Source of the DNA: Nitrososphaerales archaeon
Lineage (GTDB): Archaea > Thermoproteota > Nitrososphaeria > Nitrososphaerales > UBA213
NCBI GenBank assembly: GCA_965197925.1
Contig: CBDAOC010000018.1
Location: forward strand, 290,407-354,406
Reading direction: 5' to 3'
DNA length: 64,000 bases
Shown here: one piece after another, positions 7,642 to 29,384 of the stretch
How the letters are laid out: every line of letters starts with the position of its first letter
Numbering within the stretch: position 1 is the first letter of the stretch
Notes under the pieces: generated by a model
The model's database searches: none
The model's input: the letters and a program-made list of their open reading frames with translations, nothing else
What the model was told of the DNA's origin: nothing
Program-made: the position numbers and the translations under genes

Positions 7642-7717
7642 TAAATCAAATTTGTGGTAATAATGATCTCTTTGATCCTTCTATTAGTATTAGTAATTTT
7701 ATTATTCATAACTATCA

Positions 7718-8810: not shown

Positions 8811-8977
8811 AACTATCTATTGAATAAATAATAATATCTATTGATCATTAAGTGCCATAAACAAATTAGAACGATATGCTGGATCAAATTAACCAAGGGT
8901 AAATCATTACAAACAAGCTGGATAGTAATGAACAAAAACAAAATTAATGAAGGAGACCTTATTTCTAATGATAGTTT

Positions 8978-9200
8978 GGCTCTGTAGAAACCATACAATA
9001 AAAAAAGTAAATCTATGCATGTTGTAGGCTATCATTCTGAACATCAGTCCCTATTCTACATCTTCACCAGTCTTGATGTTATATGCTCACTAAACTTCTC
9101 TTTATCACTGATAGTACCGCCTCATTCTTGTTTTTTTGATGGTATAGCCGTGTATAGAATCTCCTCTTCAGTTGCTTCCTTTATCTCCCATATGAAGCCT
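8978..9200 (-). mobile_element. degenerate 3' end of an IS5-family (ISH1-group-like) transposase with its terminal repeat
   Basis: Minus strand reads RKQLKRRFYTRLYHQKNKNEAVLSVIKR/FSEHITSRLVKM*NR/LMFRMIAYNMHR across stops and frameshifts, ending at GGCTCTGTAGAAA (8978-8990). Confidence 0.7.
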
Positions 9201-9662
9201 CAACTTTCTATGGTTTTACTTAAATAAACGATCTATGTATTCGAATTCCCTACGATAAAGAAATTGTTTTGTAATCCAAATATTATTAATTCTGTCAGCA
9301 AATTTTTGAACGGTTATATGCAGAGGAATATACAGCGCTTTAGTAGGGTCCCCATGTTAGTATCCCTATGATGCCAATCTACACATCTTCAAATAATAAA
9401 TTTCATTCTCTCTTTTACCTAGAAGGAAATTGCGATGTCATATCGCAAAGATATGATTTCTATTTTTGCAAATAGAGGCCCCCTCTTGTCTTTAATGCAA
9501 TATTAAAAGAAGTTTTATAGATATTGAACTAGCGGGATTCTTTTGTGAATTAAACATAAGGAATACCCTAATACTAGTTTTGATGTTACTTCAGAATCCT
9601 AACACTGAGGGTTATGGTTTTTCCAGAGCAAAAAATACTCCTCAATACTTGGTTTAGTAAGA

Positions 9663-10637
9663 TTAATCTACAATTAGACCATCGTATTCTATTTTTGCCA
9701 CAAAACCTCTATATCTTTTCATGAATTTCATTATCTTTTTCTTACAATGCTTGCTTGTTAACACTATAATACATCCACCACCACCAGCACCAGTTATCTT
9801 AGCGCCCAAGGCTCCATTTTTCAAAGCATTTTGTACTAAATTGTCTAACACAATTCTAGAAACACCTAATCTAGATAACAGACCATGGTTTAAGGTCATA
9901 AGCAAACCAATTTCTTTATAATCTTGATCATTTAACGCTTTTAGTCCACATAAAGTAATCTTTTCACTCTTGGTAGCCAAATCCATAAAGAGGTCATTAT
10001 TTCTTTCATGCTTTTGTTCAACTCTGGAAACCACCTTACCCGTGGTTCTTCTTATTCCTGAATTGAGAAGAATCAACTGCAAATCAATCTCTGAATTAAT
10101 AGGTTTCACACTCTTATTTTTGGTGTATAACATAAGCCCGCCATAAGTACAAATTGCAGAGTCTGCCCCAGATGGATTCCCATGAACCATTTTTTCTGTA
10201 TTTAATGATATATCACAGATTTTCTTCTTGCTTAACTGCCCAAAAAGCGCTCCTACGGCGCCTATGGTTCCTACAGAACAAGCCGCAGATGATCCGAGGC
10301 CTACACCCTGTTGAAATTCAGATCTGATACTTATGTCGAGTCCAACATTAGCATTAAATTCATTCATAGTATCAGTAGCGGCTGTCAGTATCGATTGTGC
10401 TAACGATTTAAAAGGTCTAGTCTGTATTTGCCTCCGTTCTTTCTGATCGAAAGAACCAGCAAAATCTATATTTGATTTAATTACAATTCTATCATCTTTT
10501 CTTATTTTAACATCAACATGAACTTTCTTATCAATCGAAGCCAATATTGCCGGTTTACCGTAGACCACAAAATGTTCTCCAAATAATATTACTTTAGCAG
10601 GTGCAATCGCTCTTGCATGATTTTTTATGGGATTCAT
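9663..10637 (-). CDS. mvk: mevalonate kinase
   Basis: APAKVILFGEHFVVYG, GLGSSAA, HGNPSGAD, KITGAGGGG. Confidence 0.96.
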   Translation of the reverse strand: MNPIKNHARAIAPAKVILFGEHFVVYGKPAILASIDKKVHVDVKIRKDDRIVIKSNIDFAGSFDQKERRQIQTRPFKSLAQSILTAATDTMNEFNANVGLDISIRSEFQQGVGLGSSAACSVGTIGAVGALFGQLSKKKICDISLNTEKMVHGNPSGADSAICTYGGLMLYTKNKSVKPINSEIDLQLILLNSGIRRTTGKVVSRVEQKHERNNDLFMDLATKSEKITLCGLKALNDQDYKEIGLLMTLNHGLLSRLGVSRIVLDNLVQNALKNGALGAKITGAGGGGCIIVLTSKHCKKKIMKFMKRYRGFVAKIEYDGLIVD

Positions 10638-13939: not shown

Positions 13940-14857
13940 ATGAGAATATGTTCTTTCCTCCCTAGCGCTACTGAGATACTCTACGAATTGGATCTAGGGA
14001 ACCATGTTGTTGGAGTAACCCATGCTTGTAATTTCCCCCCCGCCGCGAAAGGAAAGACTGTTGTAGTTAGAAGTGTTTTTGATGACTCTATTTTGACTAG
14101 TAAAGAAATCGATAATTTGATAGTTCAATTGGAGTGTGAAAGAAAGGATGTTTATGTAGTGGATGAATATGCGTTAAAAAACGCAGCTCCCGATCTAATA
14201 ATTGCACAGGGGTTATGTGACGTATGTTCACCACATAAGAAAGAACTTGACAGAGCAATGAATATTTTGAACAATAAACCTGAAGTCATTATGTTAAATC
14301 CTGACGATCTGGATGGAATAATTTTCTGTATTGGTGATATTGCTAAAAAAGTAGGAAAGGAGCAGAAGGGGAAGGAAATAATTGCATCACTGATGAGGCG
14401 TATAGACAACATAAGTTCTAAAGCCAAGGCGGCACTGAATAAGCCGAAAGTGCTCTGCATAGAGTGGTTAGACCCATTGTTCACATCCGGTCACTGGGTT
14501 CCACAAATGGTGGATCTCTCGGGAGGAATAAATGGTATTAGTAAAACAGGAGAAAGGTCGAGAAGGATGGAGTTGAGAGAAGTCATGGAATTCGATCCCG
14601 ATATAATAATTCTTATGCCCTGTGGTTTTAATATTGAGAGAACTATGAAAGAAATATGGCAAATAGAATGGATAGAGGAATGGAAGAACATTCGAGCAGT
14701 TAAGATGAAAGAAGTATACGCTACCGAAGCAAGTCCATACTTCAGCAGGCCGGGACCTAGGACTGTTGTTGGTATTGAAATACTAGCCAAGATAATTCAT
14801 CCAGAATTATTTACCGAACTAAAAGTTCCAGAGGATTCTTATACAAAAATTTATTGA
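13940..14857 (+). CDS. BtuF/TroA-like cobalamin/iron-complex binding protein, no signal peptide
   Basis: RICSFLPSATEIL, GVTHAC, CDVC, EWLDP..GHWVP, PCGF, FSRPGPR. Confidence 0.85.
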   Translation: MRICSFLPSATEILYELDLGNHVVGVTHACNFPPAAKGKTVVVRSVFDDSILTSKEIDNLIVQLECERKDVYVVDEYALKNAAPDLIIAQGLCDVCSPHKKELDRAMNILNNKPEVIMLNPDDLDGIIFCIGDIAKKVGKEQKGKEIIASLMRRIDNISSKAKAALNKPKVLCIEWLDPLFTSGHWVPQMVDLSGGINGISKTGERSRRMELREVMEFDPDIIILMPCGFNIERTMKEIWQIEWIEEWKNIRAVKMKEVYATEASPYFSRPGPRTVVGIEILAKIIHPELFTELKVPEDSYTKIY

Positions 14858-17502
14858 TTTTTTTTGTTTTTTATACTAATTTGTGCGGCGGCTATTAACG
14901 CTATAGGGATTCTATTTGGTGAAGTACTAACGTAGTTAAGATTTATAGTATCACAAAATGCAATTGAGTTGGGATTTCCTCCATGCTCACCACATATACC
15001 GACTTCAAGATCCTCTTTAACACTTCTACCATGCTCTACTGCAATTTGCATGATTTTACCTACTCCCTTTGAATCCAAAGTTTGAAATGGATTGTCTGCG
15101 ATAATTCCTTTCTCCAAGTAAAATGGTAAGAATTTTCCCTCTACGTCTTCCCTGCTAAAACTGAACACAGCTTGTGTAAGATCGTTTGTACCGAAACTAA
15201 AGAATTCTACTAATTCTGCAATTGAATCTGCAATCAAGCAAGCTCTAACTACCTCTATCATAGTTCCAAACTTTATACTCATCTTAGTTTGATGCTTTTG
15301 TTCAACTTCCTTCATTATTTTTTCATAAATTTTTTTTATCGTAACTAGTTCCTGTACACTTCCAACCTGCGGGATCATTATTTGTGGCTGAGCATTAACA
15401 TTCTGCTTGCTCAATTCATAAGTTGCTTCACAAATAGCCTTGATTTGCATTTCGTAAATTTCTGGAAAAGTTACTCCTAACCGAACTCCTCTATGACCCA
15501 TCATAGGATTGAACTCTGCCAATTCCCTAGCTCTTTCAAGCAGATTCTCCCTCCTTCTTCTTACAAGTGATTTCTTGTCGAATTTGTAGATCTGCGTTAG
15601 CAAGTCCTCTATTCTAGGAAGGAATTCATGCAATGGTGGATCTAATAATCTGAACGTAACAGGGTAGCCTTCCATTGCCTTCAATATAGCCTTGAAATCG
15701 GCCTTTTGCAAGGGCTTGAGATCATTCAATGCTTTCAATCTCTCCTTCTCTGATCTTGCCATGATCATCTTCACGAATAGAGCTAGGCGATCTTTGGTAT
15801 TGAACATTCTTTCTGTTCTACATAAACCAATTCCCTCTGCGCCACGTTTCCTTGCAAGCGCAACACCGTCAGGGGTACTAGCATTGGCCCTAATACCAAG
15901 CCTCTTGATTTCTCTAGCCCAATCTAACATTTGCTCGAATTCTTTCCCAGTTTCTGGTTGTATTGTAGGTAATTCTCCGCGGTATACATTACCCGTAAGA
16001 CCATCGATGGTGATAATAGAATTGGCTTTTACAATTGTCTTTCCAGCTATGAATCTATTGGTTTTATAATTGATCGATATATTGGAGCAGCCGACTATGC
16101 ATGGCTTACCCATACCTCGTGCAACTACTGCAGCATGTGAAGTCTTGCCACCCCTGCTTGTTAATATTCCATTAGATACGAAGAATGCTGAGACATCATC
16201 AGGTTTCGTTTCTTCCCTTACCAGAATCACATCATCTCCTCTCTTACCCATCTCCTCTGCTTTCTTTACATCAAATACCACTTTTCCAATCGCCGCTCCA
16301 GGTGAAGCTGATATCCCTACCGCAATTGGTTTTGCATTCACAATTGGATTAACTCTCTCGTGTAATATCTGCTTAAGCTGCTCTACATCAATTCGGAGTA
16401 TCGCTTCTTCTTTGGTGATAAGACCTTCAATGGCCATATCAACAGATGTCTTTACCTCAGCAATTGCGTTCATCTTAGCCGGTCTGGTTTGTAACAAGTA
16501 TAACTTGTCGTGTTGTATCGTGAATTCAACATCTTGTGGCTCTCTGTAATGTTTCTCCAGATTTTGACCCGTTTGAAACAATTGTTTATAGGTTGTTGGC
16601 ATCTTTGCTTCAAGTTTGTAGATCGGTTCTGGCGTTCTTACACCCGCTACAATATCCTCGCCTTGGGCATCGATCAGAAATTCTCCATAGAGTTTATTTT
16701 CACCAGTTTCTGGGTTTCTCGTAAATACAACCCCGGTAGCGCTGTTCTTACCCATGTTGCCAAATACCATAGTAATAATTGTAACAGCTGTTCCATTTGA
16801 TATATCTGAACTTATTTTGTAATATTTCCTATATTCGACTGCACGTTCACCCATCCAACTCCTGAATACAGCGTCTATAGCAAGTTCCAATTGCCGGTAA
16901 GGATCAGATGGAAATTTTTTTCCAGTATGTTTTTCACATATCTGTATAAACTTCTTAGTAAGCTCCTTCAACACATCTTCATCCAGTTCACTATCAAATT
17001 GTATTTTTTTTTGCTTCTTGGTATCTTCCAGCAATTTTGAGAGAATATTCTCCTCAGCACCAAGAACTATTTTTCCAAACATCTGAACAAACCTCCGATA
17101 AGCATCCCATGCAAATCTTGGATTACTACTCTGTGTTATTAACCCCTGAATAGTATCATCGTTAAGACCCAGATTTAGAATCGTGTCCATCATTCCTGGC
17201 ATGGATATTGAGGCACCTGAACGCACGGAGACCAGCAATGGGTTATTTTTATCTCCAAAAATCTTACCAGTAATCTTTTCCAGTCTCTTCACAGAAGTAT
17301 GGACCTGTTCAATCAATTCCCGTGGCAATTTTCCGCCATTTTCGTAGAACCTATTACATACTTCTGTAGTAACTACAAAGCCTGGAGGAACTGGTAAACC
17401 CAATCTTGTCATTTCACATAAACCTGCACCTTTTCCTCCGAGTAGTTTCTTATCACTTCCATCACCTTCATCAAAGAAAAGGATAGACTGTGTTTCTAGC
17501 AT
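14851..17502 (-). CDS. ppdK: pyruvate, phosphate dikinase
   Basis: GGKGAGL, SMPGMMDT, TSHAAVVAR phospho-His, GLCRTE, GICGEHGG. Confidence 0.98.
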   Translation of the reverse strand: MLETQSILFFDEGDGSDKKLLGGKGAGLCEMTRLGLPVPPGFVVTTEVCNRFYENGGKLPRELIEQVHTSVKRLEKITGKIFGDKNNPLLVSVRSGASISMPGMMDTILNLGLNDDTIQGLITQSSNPRFAWDAYRRFVQMFGKIVLGAEENILSKLLEDTKKQKKIQFDSELDEDVLKELTKKFIQICEKHTGKKFPSDPYRQLELAIDAVFRSWMGERAVEYRKYYKISSDISNGTAVTIITMVFGNMGKNSATGVVFTRNPETGENKLYGEFLIDAQGEDIVAGVRTPEPIYKLEAKMPTTYKQLFQTGQNLEKHYREPQDVEFTIQHDKLYLLQTRPAKMNAIAEVKTSVDMAIEGLITKEEAILRIDVEQLKQILHERVNPIVNAKPIAVGISASPGAAIGKVVFDVKKAEEMGKRGDDVILVREETKPDDVSAFFVSNGILTSRGGKTSHAAVVARGMGKPCIVGCSNISINYKTNRFIAGKTIVKANSIITIDGLTGNVYRGELPTIQPETGKEFEQMLDWAREIKRLGIRANASTPDGVALARKRGAEGIGLCRTERMFNTKDRLALFVKMIMARSEKERLKALNDLKPLQKADFKAILKAMEGYPVTFRLLDPPLHEFLPRIEDLLTQIYKFDKKSLVRRRRENLLERARELAEFNPMMGHRGVRLGVTFPEIYEMQIKAICEATYELSKQNVNAQPQIMIPQVGSVQELVTIKKIYEKIMKEVEQKHQTKMSIKFGTMIEVVRACLIADSIAELVEFFSFGTNDLTQAVFSFSREDVEGKFLPFYLEKGIIADNPFQTLDSKGVGKIMQIAVEHGRSVKEDLEVGICGEHGGNPNSIAFCDTINLNYVSTSPNRIPIALIAAAQISIKNKKNQ

Positions 17503-17621
17503 ATGCGATCTCCATATTTACCTATTATCAATCTTTTGACAGAATTTTGTCTGTAATTGAATATTAAATAAATTTTACAGATTCGATAACATTAAACACG
17601 AAGAAGGTCTATAATTTTTAA

Positions 17622-18545
17622 TTGAATAAAAGAACTGAGTTTGGAGTAGTATTGGGCTCAAAGGCTTCACCTCACATTGTGAGAGAGGCCGCTAGAATTT
17701 GCGATGATTCTGAAATGAACTCTTTCTGGGTACCCGAGACAACAGAATATGGAGGATTTGCTATGCTTGGATACCTTGCAAGTCATACAAGAAGAATCAT
17801 GCTTGGTTCAGGTATTGTTAATGTTTATAGCCGCTGTCCAAAGACCATCATGATGGAAGCAAAAAGTTTGTCCGAGCTAACCAATGGTCGATTTATCCTC
17901 GGTATTGGAGCAAGTTCTCCGCCGATAATTGAACAATGGCATGGGATCAAATTTGAGAGACCTATTCATAGAATGGTTCAAGCAACCAAAATTTTACGAG
18001 AGGGGTATAATGGCTTAATTTACTGGGCTACGATTAACAAGCTAATGACCAATAATGCAGGTAAATTTGCCGACGGCGTCATTTTTTTTCTCAAACCCAT
18101 CAATGTTGTAAAGAAGTACACTGAGTACCTCAAAGGAAGAACAGGTCAAATAGCAAATAACAAAGCAAAGATTGTATCATTTATACCCACGTATATTTCG
18201 AATGATATAGTGAAGGCTAAAAATATGGCAAGAACTACTATTGCGGCATATGTTGGCGGAAGTCCATTTTATGGTCAACCAATTATAGAAGCAGGCTACG
18301 CTGAAAGTGTCAATAAAATAAGAGATGCTTGGTCATTAGGAAATCGCACTTTATCCATTAAAAGTGTTCCCGATGAATTGGTTAGCTCAATAGCAGCGGT
18401 AGGGGACGTAGATGAATGTATTTCTACTCTTAAGGATCATGCCAGAAGTGGCATTTGTAAAGTAGTTGCTACTTTTGATCTCAGAAGGCATCTATATAAC
18501 GAACAATTCTTAAACAATTTACGGAAGTTCAATGATAAACTTTAG
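17622..18545 (+). CDS. luciferase-like monooxygenase superfamily oxidoreductase (Mer-like, probably F420-dependent)
   Basis: WVPE, T..I.LGSGIVNVYSR.P, GRFILGIGASS, ADG motifs. Confidence 0.85.
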   Translation: MNKRTEFGVVLGSKASPHIVREAARICDDSEMNSFWVPETTEYGGFAMLGYLASHTRRIMLGSGIVNVYSRCPKTIMMEAKSLSELTNGRFILGIGASSPPIIEQWHGIKFERPIHRMVQATKILREGYNGLIYWATINKLMTNNAGKFADGVIFFLKPINVVKKYTEYLKGRTGQIANNKAKIVSFIPTYISNDIVKAKNMARTTIAAYVGGSPFYGQPIIEAGYAESVNKIRDAWSLGNRTLSIKSVPDELVSSIAAVGDVDECISTLKDHARSGICKVVATFDLRRHLYNEQFLNNLRKFNDKL

Positions 18546-18554
18546 TGAGAACTA

Positions 18555-19667
18555 ATGACCGAATTTCTATCAATTTTATCAATAGCCACAAAATTTCCAC
18601 CCTTCAAATATTCAATAAAAGAATTTGTAGAATTTTTAAGCGACAGAATGACTGAGGCAGCAAAGGATTTTTTTATTAATTCACTTGGTATAAGCACGGT
18701 TTATCATTCCATAGATTACAATCAGATCGGCTTATCAGATGAACATTACGTTCTCCCTCACGTCAATTTAAGCGATCTCTACCTTGATGCCGCAAAAGAG
18801 TGTTTAGACAAAGCTATGGTAAGTGCAAAACAGGTGAAAAAGATAATAGTTATAAACGATAATCCGCAGACTCTAGATCCCTCGGTAACCAATGAACTTA
18901 TGTGCCGATTACCCCTACCATCTGCCACCTTAGATTTTAATTTACAGGGACATGCATGTTCATCATTGACTAGAGCAATGCATATTGCAAATTCACAATC
19001 AAATGAAGATTATTCTTTAGTTTTGATCGGGAATTATTACTCGCCTTGGTTCTTCGATATGACAAAACAGATAGAAATGGTATATGCTCCAAGTGAAATA
19101 AACTCAATAAAAAAAAGACGTAAGGACTTCAATACGTGCAATTATTTCCTTCAATTCAGTGATAATGCAACAGCACTCCTGATGTCTCATATGGAAGGTG
19201 GGCCCCTGAATGTGATCATGGATAGTATTACAACCAAAACCGGAGTAGAGTCCGATGATTACAAGACAGCAAGTCTTAAGATTATTCCAGATAAGAATAA
19301 TCGAGTTATTTTCGATATGGATGTAAATACTAAGCATCTTAAACAACGGGTCAAGCAATTGAGCAGAGAAGCAAAAATGGAAACACTGAAAAAATGTGGT
19401 ATGATGGAAAATGACATTAAGTTATGGTCCCTTCATACAGGTGGTAAGGTGTATGTTGATGGGGTGAGGGAAGAATGTGGTATTAGCTATGACAAGTGTA
19501 AAATAACATATGATATTATGAATGAAATTGGAAATACAGGCGCTTCGAGTTCCTCAATCTTGATGATGAAAACTCTTGAAAGAAAGGTTTTAAAGAATAG
19601 AGAGATAGGTGGAGTACTAGACTTCGGTTGGGGTCCCAAAGCTGATGCTTTTCTGTACTATATCTAG
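18555..19667 (+). CDS. divergent type III polyketide synthase / KAS III-fold condensing enzyme
   Basis: ILSIATKFPP N-terminus, GHAC(135)SS, QFSDNATA, WSLH(294)TGG, GN(327)TGASS, FGWGP; Cys-His-Asn triad with His-Asn spacing of 33 as in chalcone synthase. Confidence 0.8.
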   Translation: MTEFLSILSIATKFPPFKYSIKEFVEFLSDRMTEAAKDFFINSLGISTVYHSIDYNQIGLSDEHYVLPHVNLSDLYLDAAKECLDKAMVSAKQVKKIIVINDNPQTLDPSVTNELMCRLPLPSATLDFNLQGHACSSLTRAMHIANSQSNEDYSLVLIGNYYSPWFFDMTKQIEMVYAPSEINSIKKRRKDFNTCNYFLQFSDNATALLMSHMEGGPLNVIMDSITTKTGVESDDYKTASLKIIPDKNNRVIFDMDVNTKHLKQRVKQLSREAKMETLKKCGMMENDIKLWSLHTGGKVYVDGVREECGISYDKCKITYDIMNEIGNTGASSSSILMMKTLERKVLKNREIGGVLDFGWGPKADAFLYYI

Positions 19668-20546
19668 ATTGGTATTATTCCTAATTACTTTTTCCAAAAA
19701 GAACTCTCCGGCTCTATAAGAACTTCTAAGCAGGGGCCCAGAAACTACGTACATGAATCCCATATCCTCTATACTTTCTTTAAGGGAATTAAATATTTGT
19801 GGTGAAACATATTGAACAACAGGATAATGTTTTGGAGTTGGTTGTAGGTATTGACCCAATGTCAATATATCTACTTCAGCTGCTCGTAGATCTTTCGCTG
19901 TCTGAATAACCTCCGCCTCCGTTTCTCCAAGACCAAGCATTATTGAAGATTTTGTGTAGATCTTAGAATTGAAATCTTTAACCTTTTTCAATACCCATAA
20001 TGATTGTTCATACAATGCTCTAGAATCCCTAATTTTCGACGTAAGTCTACTTACAGTTTCTATGTTATGGCTTATTACTTCTGGTTGAGCATCCACTACC
20101 TTTTGTATTAAAACTTCATTCCCTCTGAAGTCAGGAATTAATGGTTCTACTATTGTTTTTGGACATAGTATTTTTACAGCCTTGATTGTTTTTGCAAAAT
20201 TCTCTGCCCCTCCATCCTCCAAGTCATCTCTACAAACAGAAGTAATTACTACGTACCTTAATCCCCATTCTTTGATCGCCTTAGCCACCCTTTCGGGCTC
20301 TTCTGAATCAAGTGATGTAGGTGTACCACTTTTTACAGCACAAAATCTACAGCCTCGAGTACATATATCTCCCATGATCATAATGGTAGCTGTTCCAGTT
20401 CCCCAACATTCTGCTATGTTAGGACATCTTGCTTCTTCACAAACAGTACTAAGCTTCAGAGTTCTAAGAGTTTGTTTAACTCGTACATAATTCTCATCTG
20501 AAGGTATTCTCACTCTAAGCCACTCAGGTTTTCTAATTTTTTCCAT
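19617..20546 (-). CDS. lipA: lipoyl synthase
   Basis: CEEARCPNIAEC (CX4CX5C), CTRGCRFC radical SAM motif, HNIETV, RSSY; start placed at ATG 20546 (MEKIRKPEWL). Confidence 0.97.
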   Translation of the reverse strand: MEKIRKPEWLRVRIPSDENYVRVKQTLRTLKLSTVCEEARCPNIAECWGTGTATIMIMGDICTRGCRFCAVKSGTPTSLDSEEPERVAKAIKEWGLRYVVITSVCRDDLEDGGAENFAKTIKAVKILCPKTIVEPLIPDFRGNEVLIQKVVDAQPEVISHNIETVSRLTSKIRDSRALYEQSLWVLKKVKDFNSKIYTKSSIMLGLGETEAEVIQTAKDLRAAEVDILTLGQYLQPTPKHYPVVQYVSPQIFNSLKESIEDMGFMYVVSGPLLRSSYRAGEFFLEKVIRNNTNLDIVQKSISFGTPTEV

Positions 20547-20580
20547 TTCTTGATCAAGAAAGATACATAATAATAAGAGT
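20546..20580. promoter_or_regulatory. divergent lipA/gcvT promoter with 16-bp perfect palindrome
   Basis: TTTCTTGATCAAGAAA at 20546-20561; AT tract TAATAATAA centred ~25 nt from both start codons. Confidence 0.5.
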
Positions 20581-20595
20581 TCACTTTTCACTTGA

Positions 20596-21657
20596 TTGAA
20601 TTTGAGAACACCCTTTTACGGAATTCACAAATCCCTCGGTGCAAAAATGCTGGACTTTCATGGATGGGATATTCCTCTACATTACTCTGGAATAATTGAT
20701 GAACATATCAATGTTAGAAATAAAGTTGGTTTGTTTGATGTTTCTCATATGGGCAGGTTTGAAATCAAGGGTCCAAAAGCTTATGATTGTCTACAAAATT
20801 TAATTACTAATGATATCTCGAAACTAAGTAATCATCAAGCATTGTATTCCCCCATGTGCTACGATAATGGCGGAATAGTTGATGATGTGATCGTTTACAG
20901 AATTGATAAGGAGAAATTCCTTGTTGTAGTTAACGCTTCAAATAAACAGAAGGATATTGAATGGATTACCGAGCATTCTGAATCGGTTAATGTGGAAAAC
21001 GTTAGTGATAAGATGGCTTTACTTGCAATTCAAGGTCCTCTAGCTATAGATACCTTACAGAAAATCGTTGAACCGGATTTAAGTCTACTACGATCATTTG
21101 ATCTTATAATCACAAATATTTTCGGAATCGAATGTATGATATCAAGAACAGGTTATACGGGAGAGGATGGTTTCGAAATATTCTTTGATTCTTCGCAAGT
21201 AGTAATTTGGGATAAGCTTATGGAGGCAGGTTCCGGCTTTATTAAACCAGCTGGCTTGGGCGCAAGAAATACACTTCGACTTGAGGGAGGATTGATGCTC
21301 TACGGGAATGATATTGATGAAAATACTACACCGTTAGAGGTCCCACTCAAATGGACTGTGCGATTTGAAAAAGACTTCATTGGAAAGCAGGCGCTCATGA
21401 ATCAGAAGGTGACACGAAAGTTGGTAGGATTTTATGTTCCAGAAAAAAGGATAGCAAGGCAGGGAAACGAAGTCTTGATAAATGAATCCAAGTCGGGTTT
21501 TGTAACAAGTGGGAGTTTTTCACCAACATTAAAAAAGTCTATTGGTCTTTGCTTTGTCCCCTTACAAGTTCTGTTGGATGAATTAATTGAAATTAATATA
21601 GGGCGGAATCTATACAAGGCAAAGGTAGCTGGTACACAGTTTTATAAGCGGAAATAA
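20596..21657 (+). CDS. gcvT: glycine cleavage system T protein
   Basis: GLFDVSHMG, VVNASN, SRTGYTGEDGFE, GLGARNTLRLEGG. Confidence 0.97.
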   Translation: MNLRTPFYGIHKSLGAKMLDFHGWDIPLHYSGIIDEHINVRNKVGLFDVSHMGRFEIKGPKAYDCLQNLITNDISKLSNHQALYSPMCYDNGGIVDDVIVYRIDKEKFLVVVNASNKQKDIEWITEHSESVNVENVSDKMALLAIQGPLAIDTLQKIVEPDLSLLRSFDLIITNIFGIECMISRTGYTGEDGFEIFFDSSQVVIWDKLMEAGSGFIKPAGLGARNTLRLEGGLMLYGNDIDENTTPLEVPLKWTVRFEKDFIGKQALMNQKVTRKLVGFYVPEKRIARQGNEVLINESKSGFVTSGSFSPTLKKSIGLCFVPLQVLLDELIEINIGRNLYKAKVAGTQFYKRK

Positions 21658-21688
21658 GGTTTTATTGGTGGAGTATGAGAGACAAATT

Positions 21689-22069
21689 ATGGAACAAAAA
21701 GAGTTGAGATTTACAAAAGAGCATGAGTGGGTCGTGATAAGGGAAGGTTTAGCTGTAGTAGGAATTTCAGATTTTGCTCAGAGACAACTTGGAGATATAG
21801 TTTCAATAGAATTGCCAAAGGTTGGTAATAATTTCAAACATATGCAACCTATAGCTATAGTTGATTCAATAAAAGCTTCTTCAGATATATATTGTCCTTT
21901 GAGTGGAGAGATAGTTGAGGTTAATGAAGATTTGCTTGAGAATCCGGGACAGATTAATCAGTCACCATATGAGTTAGGTTGGATTATAAAAATTAGACCT
22001 TTGTATATCAAGGGATTTGATGATTTGATGTCAAAGGAACAATATGATAAGTTCGTTGGTGAATTGTAG
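21689..22069 (+). CDS. gcvH: glycine cleavage system H protein
   Basis: FTKEHEWV, GISDFAQ..LGD, lipoyl-Lys in DSIKASSD, NQSPYELGW; upstream in-frame TTG at 21665 also possible. Confidence 0.96.
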   Translation: MEQKELRFTKEHEWVVIREGLAVVGISDFAQRQLGDIVSIELPKVGNNFKHMQPIAIVDSIKASSDIYCPLSGEIVEVNEDLLENPGQINQSPYELGWIIKIRPLYIKGFDDLMSKEQYDKFVGEL

Positions 22070-22079
22070 GAGATTGAAT

Positions 22080-23342
22080 ATGGATTATGTACCAATTTCT
22101 GAAAAAGATAAAAAAGAAATGTTGAAGCGGATAGGAGTAGGCTCTATAGATGATTTAGTTAAGGAATTCAAGCCAGCTTTCCAAAGAAAATTACATCTCT
22201 CTGAACCAATGAGCGAGCTTGACCTAATACAACATATGAAAGCTTTGGCTCAAAGAAATAGAATCTTGAAATGCTTTGTGGGAGCAGGGTCGTACAATCA
22301 TTATATTCCTTCTGCAGTGACTCACTTGCTTATGAGGGGAGAGTTCTATACAGGATACACCCCATACCAAGCGGAGATAAATCAAGGCACATTGCAGGCA
22401 ATATACGAATTCCAATCTTTCATATGCCTTCTAACTGGCATGGATGTTGCCAATGCTTCGATGTATGAAGGTGCATCTGCGTTGGCAGAAGCCACATTGA
22501 TGTCATCAACCTATACGCAAAGGAACGGCATTTTTGTAAACGAAGGAGTTCATCCTCAATATCTGGAAGTTTTAAAAACATATTTCGAGGGTGCAGATCT
22601 TGAACTTACAAACAAGATTGACAATAAAACAGCTTGCGTAATTGCCCAGAATCCTGATTTCTACGGAAATGTTGAGAATTTACTACAACTATCGTTTCGT
22701 GCTCATAAAGCAGGAGCACTGTTTGTTGCATGTATAGTAGAACCAACATCTCTTGCAATAATAGAACCTCCTGGAAATTATGGTGCAGATATTGTGGTTG
22801 GCGAAGGACAATCGTTTGGAATACCAATGAACTTTGGTGGCCCATATCTTGGATTCATTGCGGTTAAAGATTTTTTATTAAAAAAAATTCCGGGAAGAAT
22901 ATCTGGTATGACGACTGATTCTAACGGAAACTATGGTTTTGTACTGACATTGCAAGCGAGAGAGCAGCACATAAGGAGAGAAAGAGCTACAAGCAATATA
23001 ACTACAAACCAAGGATTGATGGCCTTAGCTTCAACAATTTACTTGGCACTTATGGGTAGAAAGGGGTTAAATATGGTTGCAAAATTATCTTATAGTAGGG
23101 CACACCTGTTGCTTGAAAAATTGATGAGTATCGGCTTTGAAACTTTAAACAAGAAACCATTTTACAACGAGTTCATTGTAAAGGCACCAGCATCTTCTGA
23201 AAAGTTTATTTCAACTTTGAACGAAAATGGAATTCTTGGAGGACTTGATCTAGGAGAGGATAGAATGTTAATTTGTTGTACTGAGATGAATAGAATTCAA
23301 GATATAGAAAATTTTGTATCAATTGTGAAGGGAACAATATGA
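22080..23342 (+). CDS. gcvPA: glycine decarboxylase subunit 1
   Basis: YTPYQAEI.QG.LQ, ANASMY, FGGP, REQHIRRERATSNI; ATG 22080 preceded by AGGAG. Confidence 0.96.
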   Translation: MDYVPISEKDKKEMLKRIGVGSIDDLVKEFKPAFQRKLHLSEPMSELDLIQHMKALAQRNRILKCFVGAGSYNHYIPSAVTHLLMRGEFYTGYTPYQAEINQGTLQAIYEFQSFICLLTGMDVANASMYEGASALAEATLMSSTYTQRNGIFVNEGVHPQYLEVLKTYFEGADLELTNKIDNKTACVIAQNPDFYGNVENLLQLSFRAHKAGALFVACIVEPTSLAIIEPPGNYGADIVVGEGQSFGIPMNFGGPYLGFIAVKDFLLKKIPGRISGMTTDSNGNYGFVLTLQAREQHIRRERATSNITTNQGLMALASTIYLALMGRKGLNMVAKLSYSRAHLLLEKLMSIGFETLNKKPFYNEFIVKAPASSEKFISTLNENGILGGLDLGEDRMLICCTEMNRIQDIENFVSIVKGTI

Positions 23343-24793
23343 AGCTGATTTTCGAATATGAAGAACAGACTAGTGAGCATTTGCCAGATGAAAATATTCT
23401 AATAGACTTACCAAAAGATCTTGTTAGAAAACAACTCCCACTCCCCAATGTGAGCGAAGTTAATGTTGTTAGACACTACACTAATTTATCAAAAAAGAAC
23501 TTTGGAGTTGATGTTGGTCTGTACCCCCTGGGTTCCTGTACAATGAAGTACAATCCAAAAGTAAACGAAGACTCAGCAAACCTAGGAGGATTTAGAAATA
23601 TTCATCCATTTTCTCCGGAACATAATGTTCAAGGAGCGTTACAATTGATGTGGGAGCTTGAGCAGGATCTGAGGGAGATTACAGGCATGGATTACTTTTC
23701 TTTGCAACCGGCAGCGGGTTCCCAGTGTGAACTTCTAGGTATAATGATAACAAAAGCTTACTTTAAGCAAAAGAAGGAAAAAAGAACAAAGATAATAATC
23801 CCTGATTCTGCTCATGGTACGAACCCTGCAAGTGCCGCTATGTGTAAGTTTGAAGCAATAACCATTCCTTCTGATTCACGTGGTAATATGGATATTACGA
23901 AATACAAACATGCACTTAGCCCTGAAGTTGCACTTGTTATGGTGACAAACCCTAATACTCTTGGGCTCTTTGAGGAACAGATTCTGGAGATGACAGAACT
24001 TGCTCATAAGAATGGAACGTTGATGTATTGTGACGGCGCAAACATGAATGCAATGCTTGGAATAACTAGGCCTGCCGATCAGGGTTTCGATATTATTCAT
24101 TTGAACTTACATAAGACATTTTCAACTCCACATGGCGGAGGTGGTCCCGGGGCTGGAACGCTAGGGGTAAAGTCATTTTTGGCAGATTATTTGCCGATAC
24201 CGAGGGTAATCAAAGAAAGTAATAGATACCATTTAGATTATACCAAAAGAAAATCTGTAGGGAGGGTTAGAACCTTTTATGGAAACTTTGGTATGCTTGT
24301 TAGAGCTTATTCTTATATCAAGGCATGGGGCGCAAATATTAGAAAGGTATCAGAGTATGCTGTATTGAATGCTAATTATCTCCTTAGTCAGCTGAAGGAT
24401 ATCTATGAACTCCCTTATGATCGAAAATGTGCTCATGAATTTGTCTTGTCATCAAGGAATTTCGGGGAAAAGAGTGCTTCGAACATTGCTAAGAGACTAT
24501 TAGATTATGGATTTCATCCACCAACAGTTTACTTCCCATTAATTGTTCATGAAGCTTTGATGATCGAACCTACAGAAACTGAGAGTAAAGAAACTTTGGA
24601 TAGATTTGCAGAAGCGTTAAGAAGTATAGCTGATGAGATGATAACAAGTCCTAATGTTGTCAAAGAAGCTCCACATACGACACTCGTTGGTAGGTTGGAT
24701 GAGGTCACTGCTGCCAGAAGGCCAAATCTAAGATGGATTGCATCTACACAAGCAACTAATAAAAATGCACAGACCGCAAAATCTAAAAACTGA
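23339..24793 (+). CDS. gcvPB: glycine decarboxylase subunit 2
   Basis: YPLGSCTMKYNP, SAHGTNPASA, LNLHKTF (PLP Lys), PHGGGGPG, IEPTETE. Confidence 0.97.
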   Translation: MKLIFEYEEQTSEHLPDENILIDLPKDLVRKQLPLPNVSEVNVVRHYTNLSKKNFGVDVGLYPLGSCTMKYNPKVNEDSANLGGFRNIHPFSPEHNVQGALQLMWELEQDLREITGMDYFSLQPAAGSQCELLGIMITKAYFKQKKEKRTKIIIPDSAHGTNPASAAMCKFEAITIPSDSRGNMDITKYKHALSPEVALVMVTNPNTLGLFEEQILEMTELAHKNGTLMYCDGANMNAMLGITRPADQGFDIIHLNLHKTFSTPHGGGGPGAGTLGVKSFLADYLPIPRVIKESNRYHLDYTKRKSVGRVRTFYGNFGMLVRAYSYIKAWGANIRKVSEYAVLNANYLLSQLKDIYELPYDRKCAHEFVLSSRNFGEKSASNIAKRLLDYGFHPPTVYFPLIVHEALMIEPTETESKETLDRFAEALRSIADEMITSPNVVKEAPHTTLVGRLDEVTAARRPNLRWIASTQATNKNAQTAKSKN

Positions 24794-24799
24794 TTAATA

Positions 24800-25075
24800 A
24801 TGAAAAAGGCAAGTTACGTATACAAGTCAGAAAAACTAATCAAGATTTCTCTTGAGTATGACGAGTTAAACAACATCATTCACTCGATAAAGATTACAGG
24901 AGATTTTTTCCTTTATCCAGAGGAAAGTTTGGATAGACTTGAAACGAATCTAATCAGTACTAGATTAGAAAGAAATGCCATAGTACAAAAGATCGAAAAC
25001 TGCATGAATAATTCAGAAGCATTTGGTTTTGATACTAAATCTTTGACCGAAGCTATTCTCGGATGTTTAAGATGA
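24800..25075 (+). CDS. lipoate-protein ligase accessory (C-terminal) domain, stand-alone LplB
   Basis: KITGDFFLYPEE motif; immediately upstream of the ligase catalytic domain. Confidence 0.82.
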   Translation: MKKASYVYKSEKLIKISLEYDELNNIIHSIKITGDFFLYPEESLDRLETNLISTRLERNAIVQKIENCMNNSEAFGFDTKSLTEAILGCLR

Positions 25076-25080
25076 ATTGA

Positions 25081-25815
25081 ATGAGATTCGAGTTTAGTGA
25101 AATCAGAGTTTTGGAGACAGGCTACAATAAAGCATACTGGAATATGGCACTCGATGAAGTATTGATGAATGGTGTGACCGATGTACCGGTTTTAAGGCTA
25201 TATGGGTGGAAACCTCCAGCTATATCAATTGGATATTTCCAAAGCATTAACGATGAGGTAGACTTGCAAAAGTGCAACTATATGGGTATCGATGTGGTTA
25301 GAAGAATAACAGGAGGTGGAGCTGTCTTTCATGATTCTGAATTGACTTACTCCTTTATCACAAGAAAATACCCACAGAATATCATGGAATCTTACAGGAT
25401 GATTTGTGTAGCCATAGTTATATGCCTTAATAAACTTGGGTTAGAGGCTAAATTTGCTCCTTTGAACGATATAGTTGCCAATGGTAAGAAAGTCTCTGGA
25501 AATGCTCAAACTAGGAAGAAAGGGACTCTATTGCAACATGGAACGATTTTGTTGGATGTCAATATTGAGAAAATGTTTTCTACATTGAAAGTGTCTTCAG
25601 AAAAGATCAGGGATAAGATGATCACTAACGTAATGGAGAGGGTAATGCCGTTGAATAAGACATTCGAAGAAGTGGCTCTTGCTCTGAAAGCAAGCTTTAG
25701 TGAAAAATTTGGTGCTAAACTTGTTATTGATAGGCTTACTATGGAAGAAGAAGAAAGTGTAAAAACGTTAGCTAAAAAGAAATATGCTACTATTCAATGG
25801 AATTGGAAAAGATGA
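25081..25815 (+). CDS. lplA: lipoate/octanoate-protein ligase catalytic domain (LplA/LipM family)
   Basis: NMALDE, RRITGGGAVFHD, ND..GKKVSGNAQ, LQHGT. Confidence 0.9.
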   Translation: MRFEFSEIRVLETGYNKAYWNMALDEVLMNGVTDVPVLRLYGWKPPAISIGYFQSINDEVDLQKCNYMGIDVVRRITGGGAVFHDSELTYSFITRKYPQNIMESYRMICVAIVICLNKLGLEAKFAPLNDIVANGKKVSGNAQTRKKGTLLQHGTILLDVNIEKMFSTLKVSSEKIRDKMITNVMERVMPLNKTFEEVALALKASFSEKFGAKLVIDRLTMEEEESVKTLAKKKYATIQWNWKR

Positions 25816-25857
25816 TTCATTAAGATTTATTGCTAAGCACACCTTAAATTCCACGAT

Positions 25858-27189
25858 ATGTATGATGTCGTTGTGATAGGAGCAGGTCCAGGAGGTTATG
25901 CTTGTGCTATTCGAGCCGCTCAACTTGGTGGGAATATTTGCCTAATTGAAAGGAATGGACTAGGCGGAACTTGCACGCAACTGGGATGTATTCCTACTAA
26001 GTTCCTTCACTCTTTGGGGGATATTGTTAGGGGTGCAATAGCGGCTAAAAAGAATGGAATAAACGCACAAATTGAGCTCGATTATAAACTCGTAAAGTCA
26101 AGAATGGAGGCAACTGTTGCCAAACTTGCTTCTGGAATAAAACTTCTCATACAAAGTAATGACATAGATCTCATAGAAGGCGAGGCGCAGATAATTTCAA
26201 AAAATAAAGTGGTTGTCAAAGAAAAAACTATAGAAACAAAACATATTGTTATTGCTACAGGCAGTTATCCCATTTGCTTGCCAGGTTATGAATTCAGAGA
26301 TAATTTCTTATCAACTAACACTATTCTAGAATTAGAAGAGCTTCCCAAGTCAATTATTATTGTTGGAGGTGGTTATAGTGGTTGTGAATTTGCTTCTGTT
26401 TTAAACGCACTAGGATGCGAAGTCACACTGGTAGAGGTCGAAAACCATCTAATGCCTTTACAGATTGAAGAGATCGGAAATACAATTGAGAAATACATGA
26501 GACTTGATGGTATCAATGTAATGACAAGATCAAGGGTAGAAAAAATTACTGGTGACATAGCTTTGGTTAATGGAGAAAAATTGAAAGTGGAAAAGATACT
26601 TTTTTGTATAGGGAGAAGACCGAACATAAATGAAGATGAATTAAATAACATTGGTGTAAAATTCAACCAAAAAGGCATTCTTGTTGATGAAGAAATGCAA
26701 ACCAGTGTTCACAACGTATTTGCAATTGGTGATGTAAGTGGAATGTATGAACTTGCTCATGTCGCTTCAAGGCAAGGCGAGATAGCGGCTCAAAATATTA
26801 TGGGAACGAAGAGCAAGATCAACTACAGATCTATTCCTATATGCATATTCACCTATCCTGAAGTTGCGTTTGTAGGAGAGTTGGAAGGAAGAACTGGAAA
26901 ATTTCCTCTTACAGCAAGTGCAAAGGCAAACTGCTTGGGGAATACAAGAGGGCATATTAAGGTATTTGAGAAGAATGGAAAACTTGTTGGTACTTTTATA
27001 ATTGCACCACATGCAGGAGAAATGATAAGTGAAGCAGCACTTGCAATTAATATGCAACTAAGCCTTGAAGACGTATTTGATACCATACACCCTCATCCCA
27101 CACTTCCAGAATCTTTTGTGGACGCTTTAAAAGATGTTAATAGTCTAGCCATACATCTTCCTTCCAAAGGATCTGGATCTGACAGATAG
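25858..27189 (+). CDS. lpdA: dihydrolipoamide dehydrogenase (GCS L protein)
   Basis: GAGPGG, GGTCTQLGCIPTK redox disulfide, GGGYSG, HPHPTLPE. Confidence 0.95.
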   Translation: MYDVVVIGAGPGGYACAIRAAQLGGNICLIERNGLGGTCTQLGCIPTKFLHSLGDIVRGAIAAKKNGINAQIELDYKLVKSRMEATVAKLASGIKLLIQSNDIDLIEGEAQIISKNKVVVKEKTIETKHIVIATGSYPICLPGYEFRDNFLSTNTILELEELPKSIIIVGGGYSGCEFASVLNALGCEVTLVEVENHLMPLQIEEIGNTIEKYMRLDGINVMTRSRVEKITGDIALVNGEKLKVEKILFCIGRRPNINEDELNNIGVKFNQKGILVDEEMQTSVHNVFAIGDVSGMYELAHVASRQGEIAAQNIMGTKSKINYRSIPICIFTYPEVAFVGELEGRTGKFPLTASAKANCLGNTRGHIKVFEKNGKLVGTFIIAPHAGEMISEAALAINMQLSLEDVFDTIHPHPTLPESFVDALKDVNSLAIHLPSKGSGSDR

Positions 27190-27222
27190 AATCAAATTCA
27201 AGAACGTGTTTATAGAACATAA

Positions 27223-27894
27223 CTACATCAAGCTCGCTAGCTCTCTTATCTTTACCCCCCAGTTCCTTGCTTTGACTACACTACTTGCAACCAAGATACC
27301 TTTAGAACCAAGATTTATCGCAGCAGACACATCCTCTGCACTAACTATACCTGCGCCACAAATGACACTTACGTCAGGATTAACCCTATTTACAGCATCT
27401 ACTGAACGGGTAATGACACTTGGCTTGGCCTTTGAAACCGCAATTCCGCTGCCAATAAGCTCCGGGGGTTCAATGGCGATGTAATCAGGAGCGAATGTAG
27501 CAAGTTTCATTACTTCTCTAGGAGTTCTGGCGCACACCACAGAGATCATCTTCAAGTTACGCAATCTTTCTACGAGGTGGCTAATTGTTGAAAGTGATAT
27601 TCTATGTTCACTATGATTAATCAGTGAACCACTAACACCATATGATTTAGCTATTTCGGGCACAATAAAACCAGTGGTACTCCCAATTTGGGAATGATCG
27701 AGGTGCTGAGCAAATACTGATATACTTACAGCATTTGCCACATAGGCTAGGGACCCAGCAGAAGGTGCAACTACAATCTTCACCCTTGGAGGAGGAACTA
27801 CACGCTCTGCCGCCATTGCTAATTTTATGCTATACCTACCAGCAACCTCAGAATAGTTTTTTAAATTAACAATGAGTAATTTTTGCTTTACCAT
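27223..27894 (-). CDS. tpiA: archaeal triosephosphate isomerase
   Basis: VNLKNY, AQH, NHSEHR, IEPPELIG, CGAGI. Confidence 0.96.
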   Translation of the reverse strand: MVKQKLLIVNLKNYSEVAGRYSIKLAMAAERVVPPPRVKIVVAPSAGSLAYVANAVSISVFAQHLDHSQIGSTTGFIVPEIAKSYGVSGSLINHSEHRISLSTISHLVERLRNLKMISVVCARTPREVMKLATFAPDYIAIEPPELIGSGIAVSKAKPSVITRSVDAVNRVNPDVSVICGAGIVSAEDVSAAINLGSKGILVASSVVKARNWGVKIRELASLM

Positions 27895-27905
27895 TGTTCG
27901 AATTA

Positions 27906-29006
27906 TTAACTTCTTTTCTTTTTGCTATTAAACTTTTCTTCTAATTTCTTCATCCTTGCTTCATATCCCTTGTTATATTCAAGTTCTTCAGGGACAACAG
28001 TTGCTGGGTGTATAAATCCTTGGTTTCGCATATCAGATGCTCTCTGAGACGCAATATTTCTGACATAATCCCAGTCAGGGGTATCGAAGCTATCACATGG
28101 TCCAGTGAACTTCCCATTATGTATACTGAACACAAGTCCGATCACCATCGGTATAGCATAATTGACGCTTGCAGGTGTATTCATCCTGACTGGCATCAAC
28201 GGTAGATGATGACTACCTCTTGTATTACCAGCCACAAAATGAGGATTGTTAAAAGCGCTACATGCCTCCTCTGTTGCTGGGAATGATTTTTGGACTCTCA
28301 CGATCGCTATTGGATCATCCTTTCCGACATAAGTCCCAGCAATATTATGCAAGCGGTCAGTGGAAGAAGTGACAATTGGTTCTCCTTTCTTGCTTATAAC
28401 AGATTCTATAACATATCTTCCAGGATACATAAGAGCCGCTTCTAACTCCGGTTTATCCTCCCATAAACGCAATTTAGCTATTCTTCCTCTCTGTACATCC
28501 ATGACACAGATTATAACACCTTCAGCAAGATCCGGATTAATTATAAGTCCTGTGTTACTCCTGCTGTCAACAAACATTCTATAAAATGGAAAGTTGAAAG
28601 CACCTGGCTCGGTCTTGTCTGCTGCAAAAACAACGAATGCCTCGTTCTGTCTTTCTTCAAACTTGAATTCTGCAACACCTGGTCCCATCCCCTTGACATT
28701 GCCAGAAAAAGAGTCTTTCAAAAGATCCTGACCAGCACCATATAATCCCTGTTCCCTTGCAACTTCCGTTCCTTCTTTGAATGAATCCCATGCAATTTTA
28801 TGTATCTTATTATTTTGGACCCCCTGCTGGTGAGACATAATTATATGTATATCATCCCCAGAATATCCTATATAGTAATCAAGCAATAGTTCAAATTCAG
28901 AACTACTAACAACATCCTCTACAGCCCTTAGAACTTCATCGCTTGGCTTTGTATGACCTCCTATTCCACCAATATCAGCTTTTATAGCTGATAATGTAAT
29001 CTTCAC
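27906..29006 (-). CDS. fbp: fructose-1,6-bisphosphate aldolase/phosphatase
   Basis: KADIGG, GLYGAGQDLL, SGNVKGMGPG, YVGKDDP, RGSH; start placed at GTG 29006. Confidence 0.97.
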   Translation of the reverse strand: MKITLSAIKADIGGIGGHTKPSDEVLRAVEDVVSSSEFELLLDYYIGYSGDDIHIIMSHQQGVQNNKIHKIAWDSFKEGTEVAREQGLYGAGQDLLKDSFSGNVKGMGPGVAEFKFEERQNEAFVVFAADKTEPGAFNFPFYRMFVDSRSNTGLIINPDLAEGVIICVMDVQRGRIAKLRLWEDKPELEAALMYPGRYVIESVISKKGEPIVTSSTDRLHNIAGTYVGKDDPIAIVRVQKSFPATEEACSAFNNPHFVAGNTRGSHHLPLMPVRMNTPASVNYAIPMVIGLVFSIHNGKFTGPCDSFDTPDWDYVRNIASQRASDMRNQGFIHPATVVPEELEYNKGYEARMKKLEEKFNSKKKRS

Positions 29007-29384
29007 AAATCCACTTTCCAGAATAAGGGTTAAATGTCTTGCTATCAGGAAGTTTGTTAGGAGATACAAAGGTAGAGATCCGAACAGCTCCTACTCTTGC
29101 TTTAGAGTTTAATCGCTTGCTGAACATTTGCCGTAAATATTTATCCTTAACCAACATTTTAGAGATCTTATAGTTAAAAATTGCTAGATTATTTTTTCTT
29201 ATTATTGAGAAGGATGGTATACTACAATTAGACAGAAATACCTCTGAGGGCATTGCAGCACATGTTGGGAAGATAAAGAACCAATTTCAAAATAATATTA
29301 TAATTCATTTAAGCGCAAGCCTCAGATATGAATGAATCTTCTTGGTACTACAAACACCAGAAGATAGTACTCTACAAAAAATCT

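Follow-up and report, generated by a model that had tools for sequence, protein, structure and literature searches.

What do a luciferase-family reductase and a polyketide synthase-like condensing enzyme do beside the lipoate genes of an ammonia-oxidizing archaeon (AOA)? The two genes, here called LLM-A (307 aa) and KS (370 aa), lie on the forward strand at positions 17622–18545 and 18555–19667 of a 64,000-nucleotide stretch of DNA from a Nitrososphaerales archaeon (contig CBDAOC010000018.1; the whole stretch is referred to below as the window). They stand at one end of an island that encodes lipoyl synthase, the glycine cleavage system (GCS; gcv genes), a bipartite lipoate–protein ligase and dihydrolipoyl dehydrogenase. 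An earlier, sequence-only reading of the window proposed that the pair supplies the octanoyl precursor of lipoate. We find that the pair is a real, conserved and uncharacterised module. The island itself is already in print: the same lipA, gcvTHP, lplAB and lpdA genes have been described in deep-sea and sponge AOA (PMC7265257, PMC7848895). The passages and supplement available for that island hold no discussion of the KS or LLM proteins. In PMC7848895 the main text has no match for terms naming the pair, and the KS domain is confined to a table row of the supplement, whose rows place PF08541 in exactly 2 of 23 genomes, those with GcvH and LplA. No publication describing the pair was found in the literature searched, in which subscription papers and bioRxiv supplements are thinly covered.

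The pair travels with the lipoate and glycine cleavage genes

Phylogenetic profiling of the pair against lipA and gcv had been suggested as a check, and its outcome favors linkage. The sample comprised 401 genomes of the class, among them the genome of the window (the host genome), its family (f1), family f2 and the related family f4. A KS search matched 20 genomes, one of which (G203, f2) was removed before the count: its match belongs to another clade, is 25% identical, and lies beside a short-chain dehydrogenase/reductase (SDR) in a genome without lipA or gcvPB. The remaining 19 are the host genome, two of four genomes in f1 and 16 of 223 in f2, and all 19 carry lipA and gcvPB. Within f2 the 16 genomes with gcvPB are exactly the 16 with KS (15 of 15 if the unpublished G132 is set aside), and the pair is lost alone or kept alone in 0 of the 19. 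A GTDB-wide species scan with AOA-specific patterns, which would miss divergent members, returned 24 loci, 23 of them with an LLM gene upstream and 21 with lipA; where one of these is missing, the locus lies at a contig end (two cases) or in a chimeric-looking assembly (one case), and the genome of that assembly does have the gcv genes. Named records with the pair include Nitrosopumilus, Nitrosotenuis, Nitrosotalea and Cenarchaeum. One apparent pair without gcv genes (L069:11444–13258, in G401) was rejected, since that genome has lipA to lplA on another contig; chimeric-looking joins in G401 (L069:11444–13258, L111:12177–12557) split the island across contigs. The gene set aside in G203 (L110:9795–11634) is a different type III polyketide synthase (PKS)-like gene, coupled to the SDR.

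Three gene orders are observed. In f1 the pair precedes an antisense lipA; in most of f2 it follows lpdA in the same direction, within an island that lies between two genes we take to encode ribosomal proteins; and in a rearranged island it is found between lpdA and lipA. The pair is placed at opposite island ends in f1 and f2. Whole-island losses take the pair along. A transposase-broken remnant in the f2 genome G160 (L034:8896–11933), the 17th lipA match of that family, retains fragments of lipA, lpdA and LLM-A, and in G174, an f1 genome without gcv, tpiA and ppdK stand 427 nt apart at the position of the island in the host genome, leaving an empty site. The pair is also under purifying selection like the gcv genes, with dN/dS values of 0.10–0.30, versus 0.06–0.27 for the island genes, across six genome pairs. 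The sequence-only reading had allowed that the adjacency might be coincidental; the 19/19 linkage, the three gene orders and the purifying selection show that it is not.

Between f1 and f2 the pair is far more divergent (1.3–1.4) than the island genes (0.4–0.6), and the f2 KS proteins group with seven context-less proteins rather than with the f1 KS (approximately unbiased test p 0.012 for one clade, from a quick tree and with the tested group picked partly after the first tree). This non-monophyly, together with the opposite island ends, suggests two recruitments of the pair to the island, although the pattern might equally stem from a faster evolutionary rate or from gcv genes that were transferred. 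Within f2-type loci the pair distances track those of gcvPB (Spearman 0.86), so the f2 genomes represent one inherited block and not independent tests. For the context of the divergent homologues P0013–P0020, a metagenome scan recovered only AOA-type loci (6 of 12 matches, the other six being weak 50-residue matches), and the viral contigs and plasmids scanned yielded no locus. A sister KS clade falls in an atlas cluster that is mostly Bathyarchaeota, and six of its seven loci (L104, L105, L106, L107, L098, L108 and L109, all from another class) are near genes that we take, partly on presumed labels, to be thiolase/DUF35 pairs, acyl-CoA carboxylase, methylmalonyl-CoA mutase-like or gcv genes. 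The sister-clade copy in G629 is split in two frames.

A type III PKS fold in the condensing enzyme

The predicted model of KS (PF08541, PF02797; pLDDT 87.7) has a thiolase fold of the chalcone synthase (CHS) type that spans the full length of the protein. Its 50 best structural matches all belong to the type III PKS family (Z 35.5–37.6), and Foldseek concurs. The bacterial enzymes CylI (8yw7) and Mycobacterium tuberculosis PKS11 (4jat) and PKS18 (1ted) tie as best matches, with Z ~37, 16–18% identity and rmsd values of 2.3–2.8 Å over ~335–350 residues. KS shares with these enzymes a Cys–His–Asn triad and HxGG-like and GN motifs, and its triad, Cys135–His294–Asn327, is invariant in 18 of 18 close homologues and 16 of 16 wider ones. 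By predicted fold and by triad, KS matches the type III PKS superfamily, of which iterative condensation with cyclisation to a pyrone or resorcinol is a further hallmark. Unlike the bacterial type III PKSs, KS is coupled to an F420-type reductase and not to an acyl ligase or methyltransferase, it is tied to lipA and gcv, and the hosts tested have no acyl carrier protein (ACP).

When the KS family is compared as a profile, plant 3-ketoacyl-CoA synthase (KCS; 9kqg, 9lgy) ties with PKS11 as best match (E 8e-27 versus 1.5e-25), the match to KCS being confined to two stretches. Plant KCS, also of CHS fold, lengthens acyl-CoA chains without ACP and leaves the reductions to separate enzymes; it produces very long chains in a membrane complex, and its partner reductases take NADPH. 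The best PDB match of the single KS sequence is Vibrio FabH2, and KS fails the FabH/KAS III cut-offs (TIGR00747, 40.7 bits versus 292; NF006829, 49.8 versus 249).

The reductase is related to F420-dependent hydride transferases

LLM-A (PF00296) is a Mer-like member of the luciferase-like monooxygenase (LLM) family, with best NCBIfam matches to TIGR04024 and TIGR03559, both below cut-off. Its best solved fold is that of Mer (8qpl, 1z69; TM ~0.8, ~20% identity). Gly64–Ile65 of LLM-A aligns in position with Gly61–Val62 of jMer, the F420 backstop after strand 3, and LLM-A is probably F420H2-dependent. Homologues of the F420 ligase (PF01996), the one cof gene searched for, occur in two copies in each of five genomes tested, and F420 has been reported to be common in AOA. 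LLM enzymes are described as reducing lipid ketones and activated alkenes, as in the ketoreductase fPKR and the alkene reductase LxmJ (PMC8498797), which are the reaction types that the pair would need. LLM-A shares its fold and the Gly–Ile backstop with Mer and with the other LLM hydride transferases (fPKR, LxmJ, Rv3520c of TIGR03559, and TIGR04024); unlike them, it lies below all family cut-offs and does not keep the pterin-site residues.

Three such residues have been named for Mer (PMC11094777), and in a profile alignment to 8qpl they correspond to Val10 (jMer Glu6), Ser99 (Asp96) and Phe156 (residue 178) of the LLM-A protein studied here. The position of the Mer catalytic glutamate is Val or Ala in all four f1-type LLM-A proteins and Glu in all ten f2-type proteins, and in the f1-type position D (Asp96) carries Ser/Ala, and position C (residue 178) Phe. 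The glutamate kept in the f2-type proteins would leave a C1 role open for them.

A paralogous reductase–thiolase–DUF35 trio

The best LLM-A paralogue in the host genome is LLM-B, which is 29% identical and relative to which LLM-A has a 26-residue deletion. LLM-B is followed by a thiolase and a DUF35-like gene (L115:8294–10720, corresponding to G000:C19:391293–393719), and a distance of 2.5 kb separates this trio from bioD, past which come bioA, bioB and a bioF-like gene. Strong LLM-B orthologues are present in 21 of 25 genomes queried, including every queried genome of f1–f4; the thiolase follows LLM-B directly in 20 of 20 loci fetched (of the 21), DUF35 was found in 17, and the linked thiolase keeps its cysteine and histidine. 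LLM-B orthologues also account for 25 of the 31 database matches beyond LLM-A's own group. In quick trees LLM-A and LLM-B are sisters relative to the other six matches and four further paralogues (SH-aLRT 94, and 98 in a second tree). That a widespread, thiolase-coupled paralogue is the closest relative of LLM-A is new here.

Because LLM-A and LLM-B both travel with a thiolase-fold condensing enzyme, the evidence points to acyl-CoA substrates for this reductase lineage. Rv3520c, a mycobacterial relative, is likewise tabulated next to the thiolase ltp4, among genes of cholesterol catabolism (PMC6429209). For Thaumarchaeota, a published account identified none of the early biotin genes (PMC6138646), and the trio is a candidate for the missing pimeloyl supply or for an unassigned reductase step of carbon fixation. 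It is also a possible source of octanoate for f4. Thiolases of AOA have roles in carbon fixation or mevalonate synthesis, and the trio could serve one of these instead.

A proposed role in octanoate supply

The reading that we favor, at a confidence slightly short of even, sees the pair as an accessory module to the AOA gcv/lipoate island, in which an ACP-free, CoA-based elongation driven by malonyl-CoA supplies octanoate to LplAB and LipA. Acetyl-CoA carboxylase of the host would provide malonyl-CoA; KS would condense it decarboxylatively with a short acyl-CoA (C2, C4, C6), as do plant KCS or BioZ; and LLM-A would carry out one F420H2-dependent reduction per round, which we guess to be that of an enoyl-CoA, reduction of the keto group being possible as well. 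A host crotonase and a second reductase would complete each round, a putative hydrolysis step would free octanoate, LplAB would load it on GcvH and LipA would insert sulfur. We infer all of these chemical steps, whereas the genes, folds, triad, linkage, co-loss and selection that frame them are observed, as are the housekeeping genes that they would draw on.

The host genome, which carries amoA and is 98.7% complete and 5.4% contaminated, encodes elsewhere acetyl-CoA carboxylase subunits, two thiolases, one crotonase and one 4HBT thioesterase, the crotonase and carboxylase being on other contigs than the island. With the queries used, gcvH is the sole lipoyl-domain protein found in this genome, and LipB, a lipoyl E2 and a second gcvH gave no tblastn match. 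The PF03099 matches are lplA and one other locus, probably a biotin ligase. With the bipartite ligase, LipA and a lipoyl-domain acceptor present and LipB not found, the components for de novo lipoylation by LplAB and LipA are in place. In the five genomes tested, the host's included, ACP (PF00550) was found in 0 of 5 (control positive in 11 of 14), acyl-CoA dehydrogenase in 0 of 5, and MaoC in none. LplA as a LipM-type transferase was rejected: among 24 sequences there is no conserved cysteine just before the ligase lysine motif, where we assume the LipM-type cysteine to be.

A condensing enzyme devoted to the chain precursor of a cofactor, as proposed here for KS, has a counterpart in BioZ, a KAS III-like enzyme dedicated to the pimeloyl precursor of biotin (PMC7645780). 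BioZ uses malonyl-ACP and the type II fatty acid synthesis of its host, whereas the pair occurs in hosts where ACP was not found, has a fold nearer to type III PKS than to FabH, and comes with a reductase. An archaeal, CoA-based route to short chains is reported for Sulfolobus, whose KT/DUF35 fatty acid synthase forms C6 in vitro and whose C8 and C10 products fall in an enoyl-CoA reductase (ECR) mutant (10.1101/2024.07.05.601840). The AOA trio partly resembles that system, which differs in its non-decarboxylative thiolase, its NADPH-dependent reductases of the SDR and medium-chain (MDR) types, and MaoC; the same report found no decarboxylating enzyme in S. acidocaldarius. The sequence-only reading took the archaeal octanoate source to be unresolved, and the origin of the octanoyl group in archaea without ACP still counts as unclear in print (PMC10332631, where the octanoylation donor is called unresolved, and PMC13692748); the Sulfolobus pathway makes this view partly outdated.

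Several observations weigh against octanoate supply by the pair. The lipoate system had been described as self-contained, a view that is not supported, since the carboxylase, the dehydratase, a second reductase and the release of the acid would all have to be provided outside the locus. In line with the accompanying caveat that no dehydratase or thioesterase is encoded here, the locus holds only one KS and one reductase, short of a full elongation cycle (KS, ketoreductase, dehydratase, enoyl reductase and release enzyme). A single reductase cannot perform both reductions by known chemistry. The 4HBT thioesterase is found in only one of five genomes, the nearest KS folds make alkylresorcinols and pyrones, and the Thermococcus kodakarensis ligase is reported not to take octanoyl-CoA (PMC13692748). 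The trio counts equally, weakening the need for the pair: because AOA already have LLM-B, thiolase and DUF35, a second chain-building system might be unnecessary. Linkage of the trio to biotin genes is itself uneven, with bio genes within the stretch in eight of nine f1/f4 LLM-B loci and in none of ten f2 loci, and with three unrelated genes between trio and bio genes in the host genome.

The distribution of the pair is a further difficulty. The sequence-only reading had named absence of the pair from most archaeal gcv–lipA loci as evidence against itself, and at class level 50 of 69 lipA genomes do lack KS, most of the 50 belonging to other families. In f4, lipA is present in 11 of 78 genomes, none of which has KS; in six of them (G239, G316, G321, G325, G397, G399) both island ends are seen and there is no pair, and four of these six have the island at the same ppdK–tpiA site as the host genome, inverted. 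PF08541 is not found above cut-off in five f4 genomes tested (two weak f4 matches were dropped, as they fall on the other strand or within an open reading frame (ORF) that resembles a dehydrogenase). Because f4 keeps the same island without it, the pair is dispensable and not needed for the lipoate/gcv island everywhere. Every f1 or f2 genome with gcv also has lipA, and the linkage is thus unable to tell a role in lipoate supply apart from some other one linked to the GCS. The sister KS clade occurs in 7 of 151 genomes of the other class, versus 96 of 151 for LipS2; all seven have LipS2, a co-occurrence that is uninformative at that frequency.

Alternative functions

The pair might make a reduced or aromatic polyketide lipid, such as an alkylpyrone or alkylresorcinol, that has nothing to do with lipoate. 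Shared selection or hitchhiking would then hold the two genes on the island, and octanoate would be scavenged or derived from the trio. The structural matches of KS, led by CylI, PKS11 and PKS18, would be expected of such an enzyme, f4 runs the same island without the pair, and the f2 distances that follow gcvPB are those of one inherited block, in 16 genomes that are not independent. A passenger should, however, sometimes be lost or kept alone, which is the case in none of the 19 genomes, and attachment at two island ends with non-monophyletic f1 and f2 KS proteins also speaks against this role. None of the mapped loci, moreover, pairs KS with an acyl-CoA ligase or a methyltransferase. We consider a polyketide lipid unlikely. 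It is improbable that KS merely handles the acyl group, by a single extension of C6 as in BioZ or by transfer or hydrolysis of octanoyl from CoA via its cysteine in place of LipB or a thioesterase, with the thiolase trio building the chain. Such a role would suit the absence of LipB from the host genome, while non-AOA relatives (five mapped) keep near lipA a gene that we presume to be LipB-like; it would also suit the FabH2 match of the single sequence, the lack of a conserved thioesterase (1 of 5) and a ligase type that is reported to need free acid (PMC13692748). The full decarboxylation triad is nonetheless invariant, and an enzyme so strictly coupled to a reductase should yield a keto or enoyl product.

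A catabolic pair, oxidising and cleaving an acyl compound that feeds the GCS, would be at odds with a Cys–His–Asn decarboxylative enzyme, which is biosynthetic by established chemistry, and with the lack of a transporter or acyl-CoA dehydrogenase alongside. In its favor are the resemblance of this LLM subfamily to TIGR03559, with the thiolase-adjoining Rv3520c as a member (PMC6429209), and the occurrence of the island in sponge and deep-sea lineages (PMC7848895, PMC7265257); we hold it to be very improbable. Least probable of all is that LLM-A acts as an F420-dependent methylene-tetrahydrofolate reductase on the C1 unit of GcvT, with KS unrelated or acting on a C1-derived substrate. Mer provides the best solved relatives, and the glutamate kept in the ten f2-type sequences would fit, but its replacement by Val or Ala here and in three other f1-type proteins, with Ser/Ala and Phe at positions D and C, does not, and KS coupling in 23 of 24 loci would be left unexplained.

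Octanoate supply by the pair could also be one case of something wider. AOA may build the chains of cofactor precursors with a family of ACP-free modules driven by F420H2, comprising the LLM-B/thiolase/DUF35 trio and a derived LLM-A/type III KS pair, an extension that we regard as doubtful. The universal trio would then possibly supply the pimeloyl chain of biotin, plus octanoate in f4, and the pair would perhaps have been recruited to the lipoate island twice. If true, this would constitute a third route to a fatty acyl chain, decarboxylative, CoA-bound and F420-reduced. The two small soluble enzymes and the paralogous trio are directly assayable: a positive result would mean a decarboxylative way for archaea to make fatty acyl chains, and a new role for F420 in abundant nitrifiers, and even a negative one would establish a family of type III PKS-like enzymes in archaea.

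Organization of the island and its surroundings

All ten genes of the sequence-only reading proved to be in place. LLM-A and KS are separated by 9 nt. They adjoin lipA (19617–20546; TIGR00510, 394 bits versus a cut-off of 310), as had been stated, but lipA is on the reverse strand and convergent with the pair, a point not made before; it overlaps the 3′ end of KS by 51 nt, and 49 nt separate it from the divergent gcvT. Its start is placed at ATG 20546 from the sequence and orthologue N-termini. Because lipA lies antisense between KS and gcvT, the pair is here its own two-gene unit, outside the gcv transcript, and a shared operon with lipA is ruled out. The remaining genes are on the forward strand: gcvT (20596–21657; TIGR00528), gcvH (21665–22069; TIGR00527), gcvPA (22044–23342; NF001696) and gcvPB (23339–24793; NF003346), all above cut-off; lplB, the small subunit of the bipartite ligase (24800–25075; PF10437), and lplA, its catalytic subunit (25081–25815; PF21948, PF03099); and lpdA (25858–27189; TIGR01350, 427 bits versus a cut-off of 409). 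For lplA and lplB the Pfam cut-offs are passed, and the best NCBIfam matches are the archaeal LplA-large and LplB models, below cut-off (NF053749, 52 bits versus 65, for lplB; NF053750 for lplA). As first read, no ACP, LipB or Fab family is found in the 63 other window ORFs scanned.

A single contig of an independent-looking DNA run, which may come from the source sample, covers positions 14000–29272 with zero differences. Two sponge metatranscriptome contig sets contain short identical pieces of LLM-A (18247–18445), lipA, gcvH, gcvPA and lpdA at a depth of 2–5, with no KS piece among those shown; such contigs cannot reveal transcription or strand. A scan for sigma-70 promoters and terminators, unsuited to archaea, was at chance level (33 versus 33.6 and 3 versus 6.0, respectively).

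Island genes of other families show peculiarities of their own. Two f4 genomes, both without the pair, have an LLM gene of a third clade, either in the space between lipA and gcvT or at a distance of 3.6 kb from lipA (G399, L047:7173–8258; G397, L045:18308–19294). The gcvPB of three f4 genomes (L044:6526–8229, L046:7303–8979 and L142; one of them the unpublished G365) splits into two aligned pieces around an insertion of 30–70 residues that keeps the frame, and gcvT and gcvPA are also longer in some of these genomes. The lipA matches in the f7 genomes G340 and G368 (L050 region) fall in 634-aa open frames, which suggests fusions.

In the window, the island lies between ppdK and tpiA/fbp (flanks 14851–17502 and 27223–29069). 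The window also holds, at 3347–10637 and 63377–64000, HMG-CoA synthase and genes of the mevalonate and isoprenoid pathway (polyprenyl synthase, FMN-dependent isomerase-like, kinases), with neither thiolase near. At least eight pieces of IS4/5-type transposases are scattered across the window.

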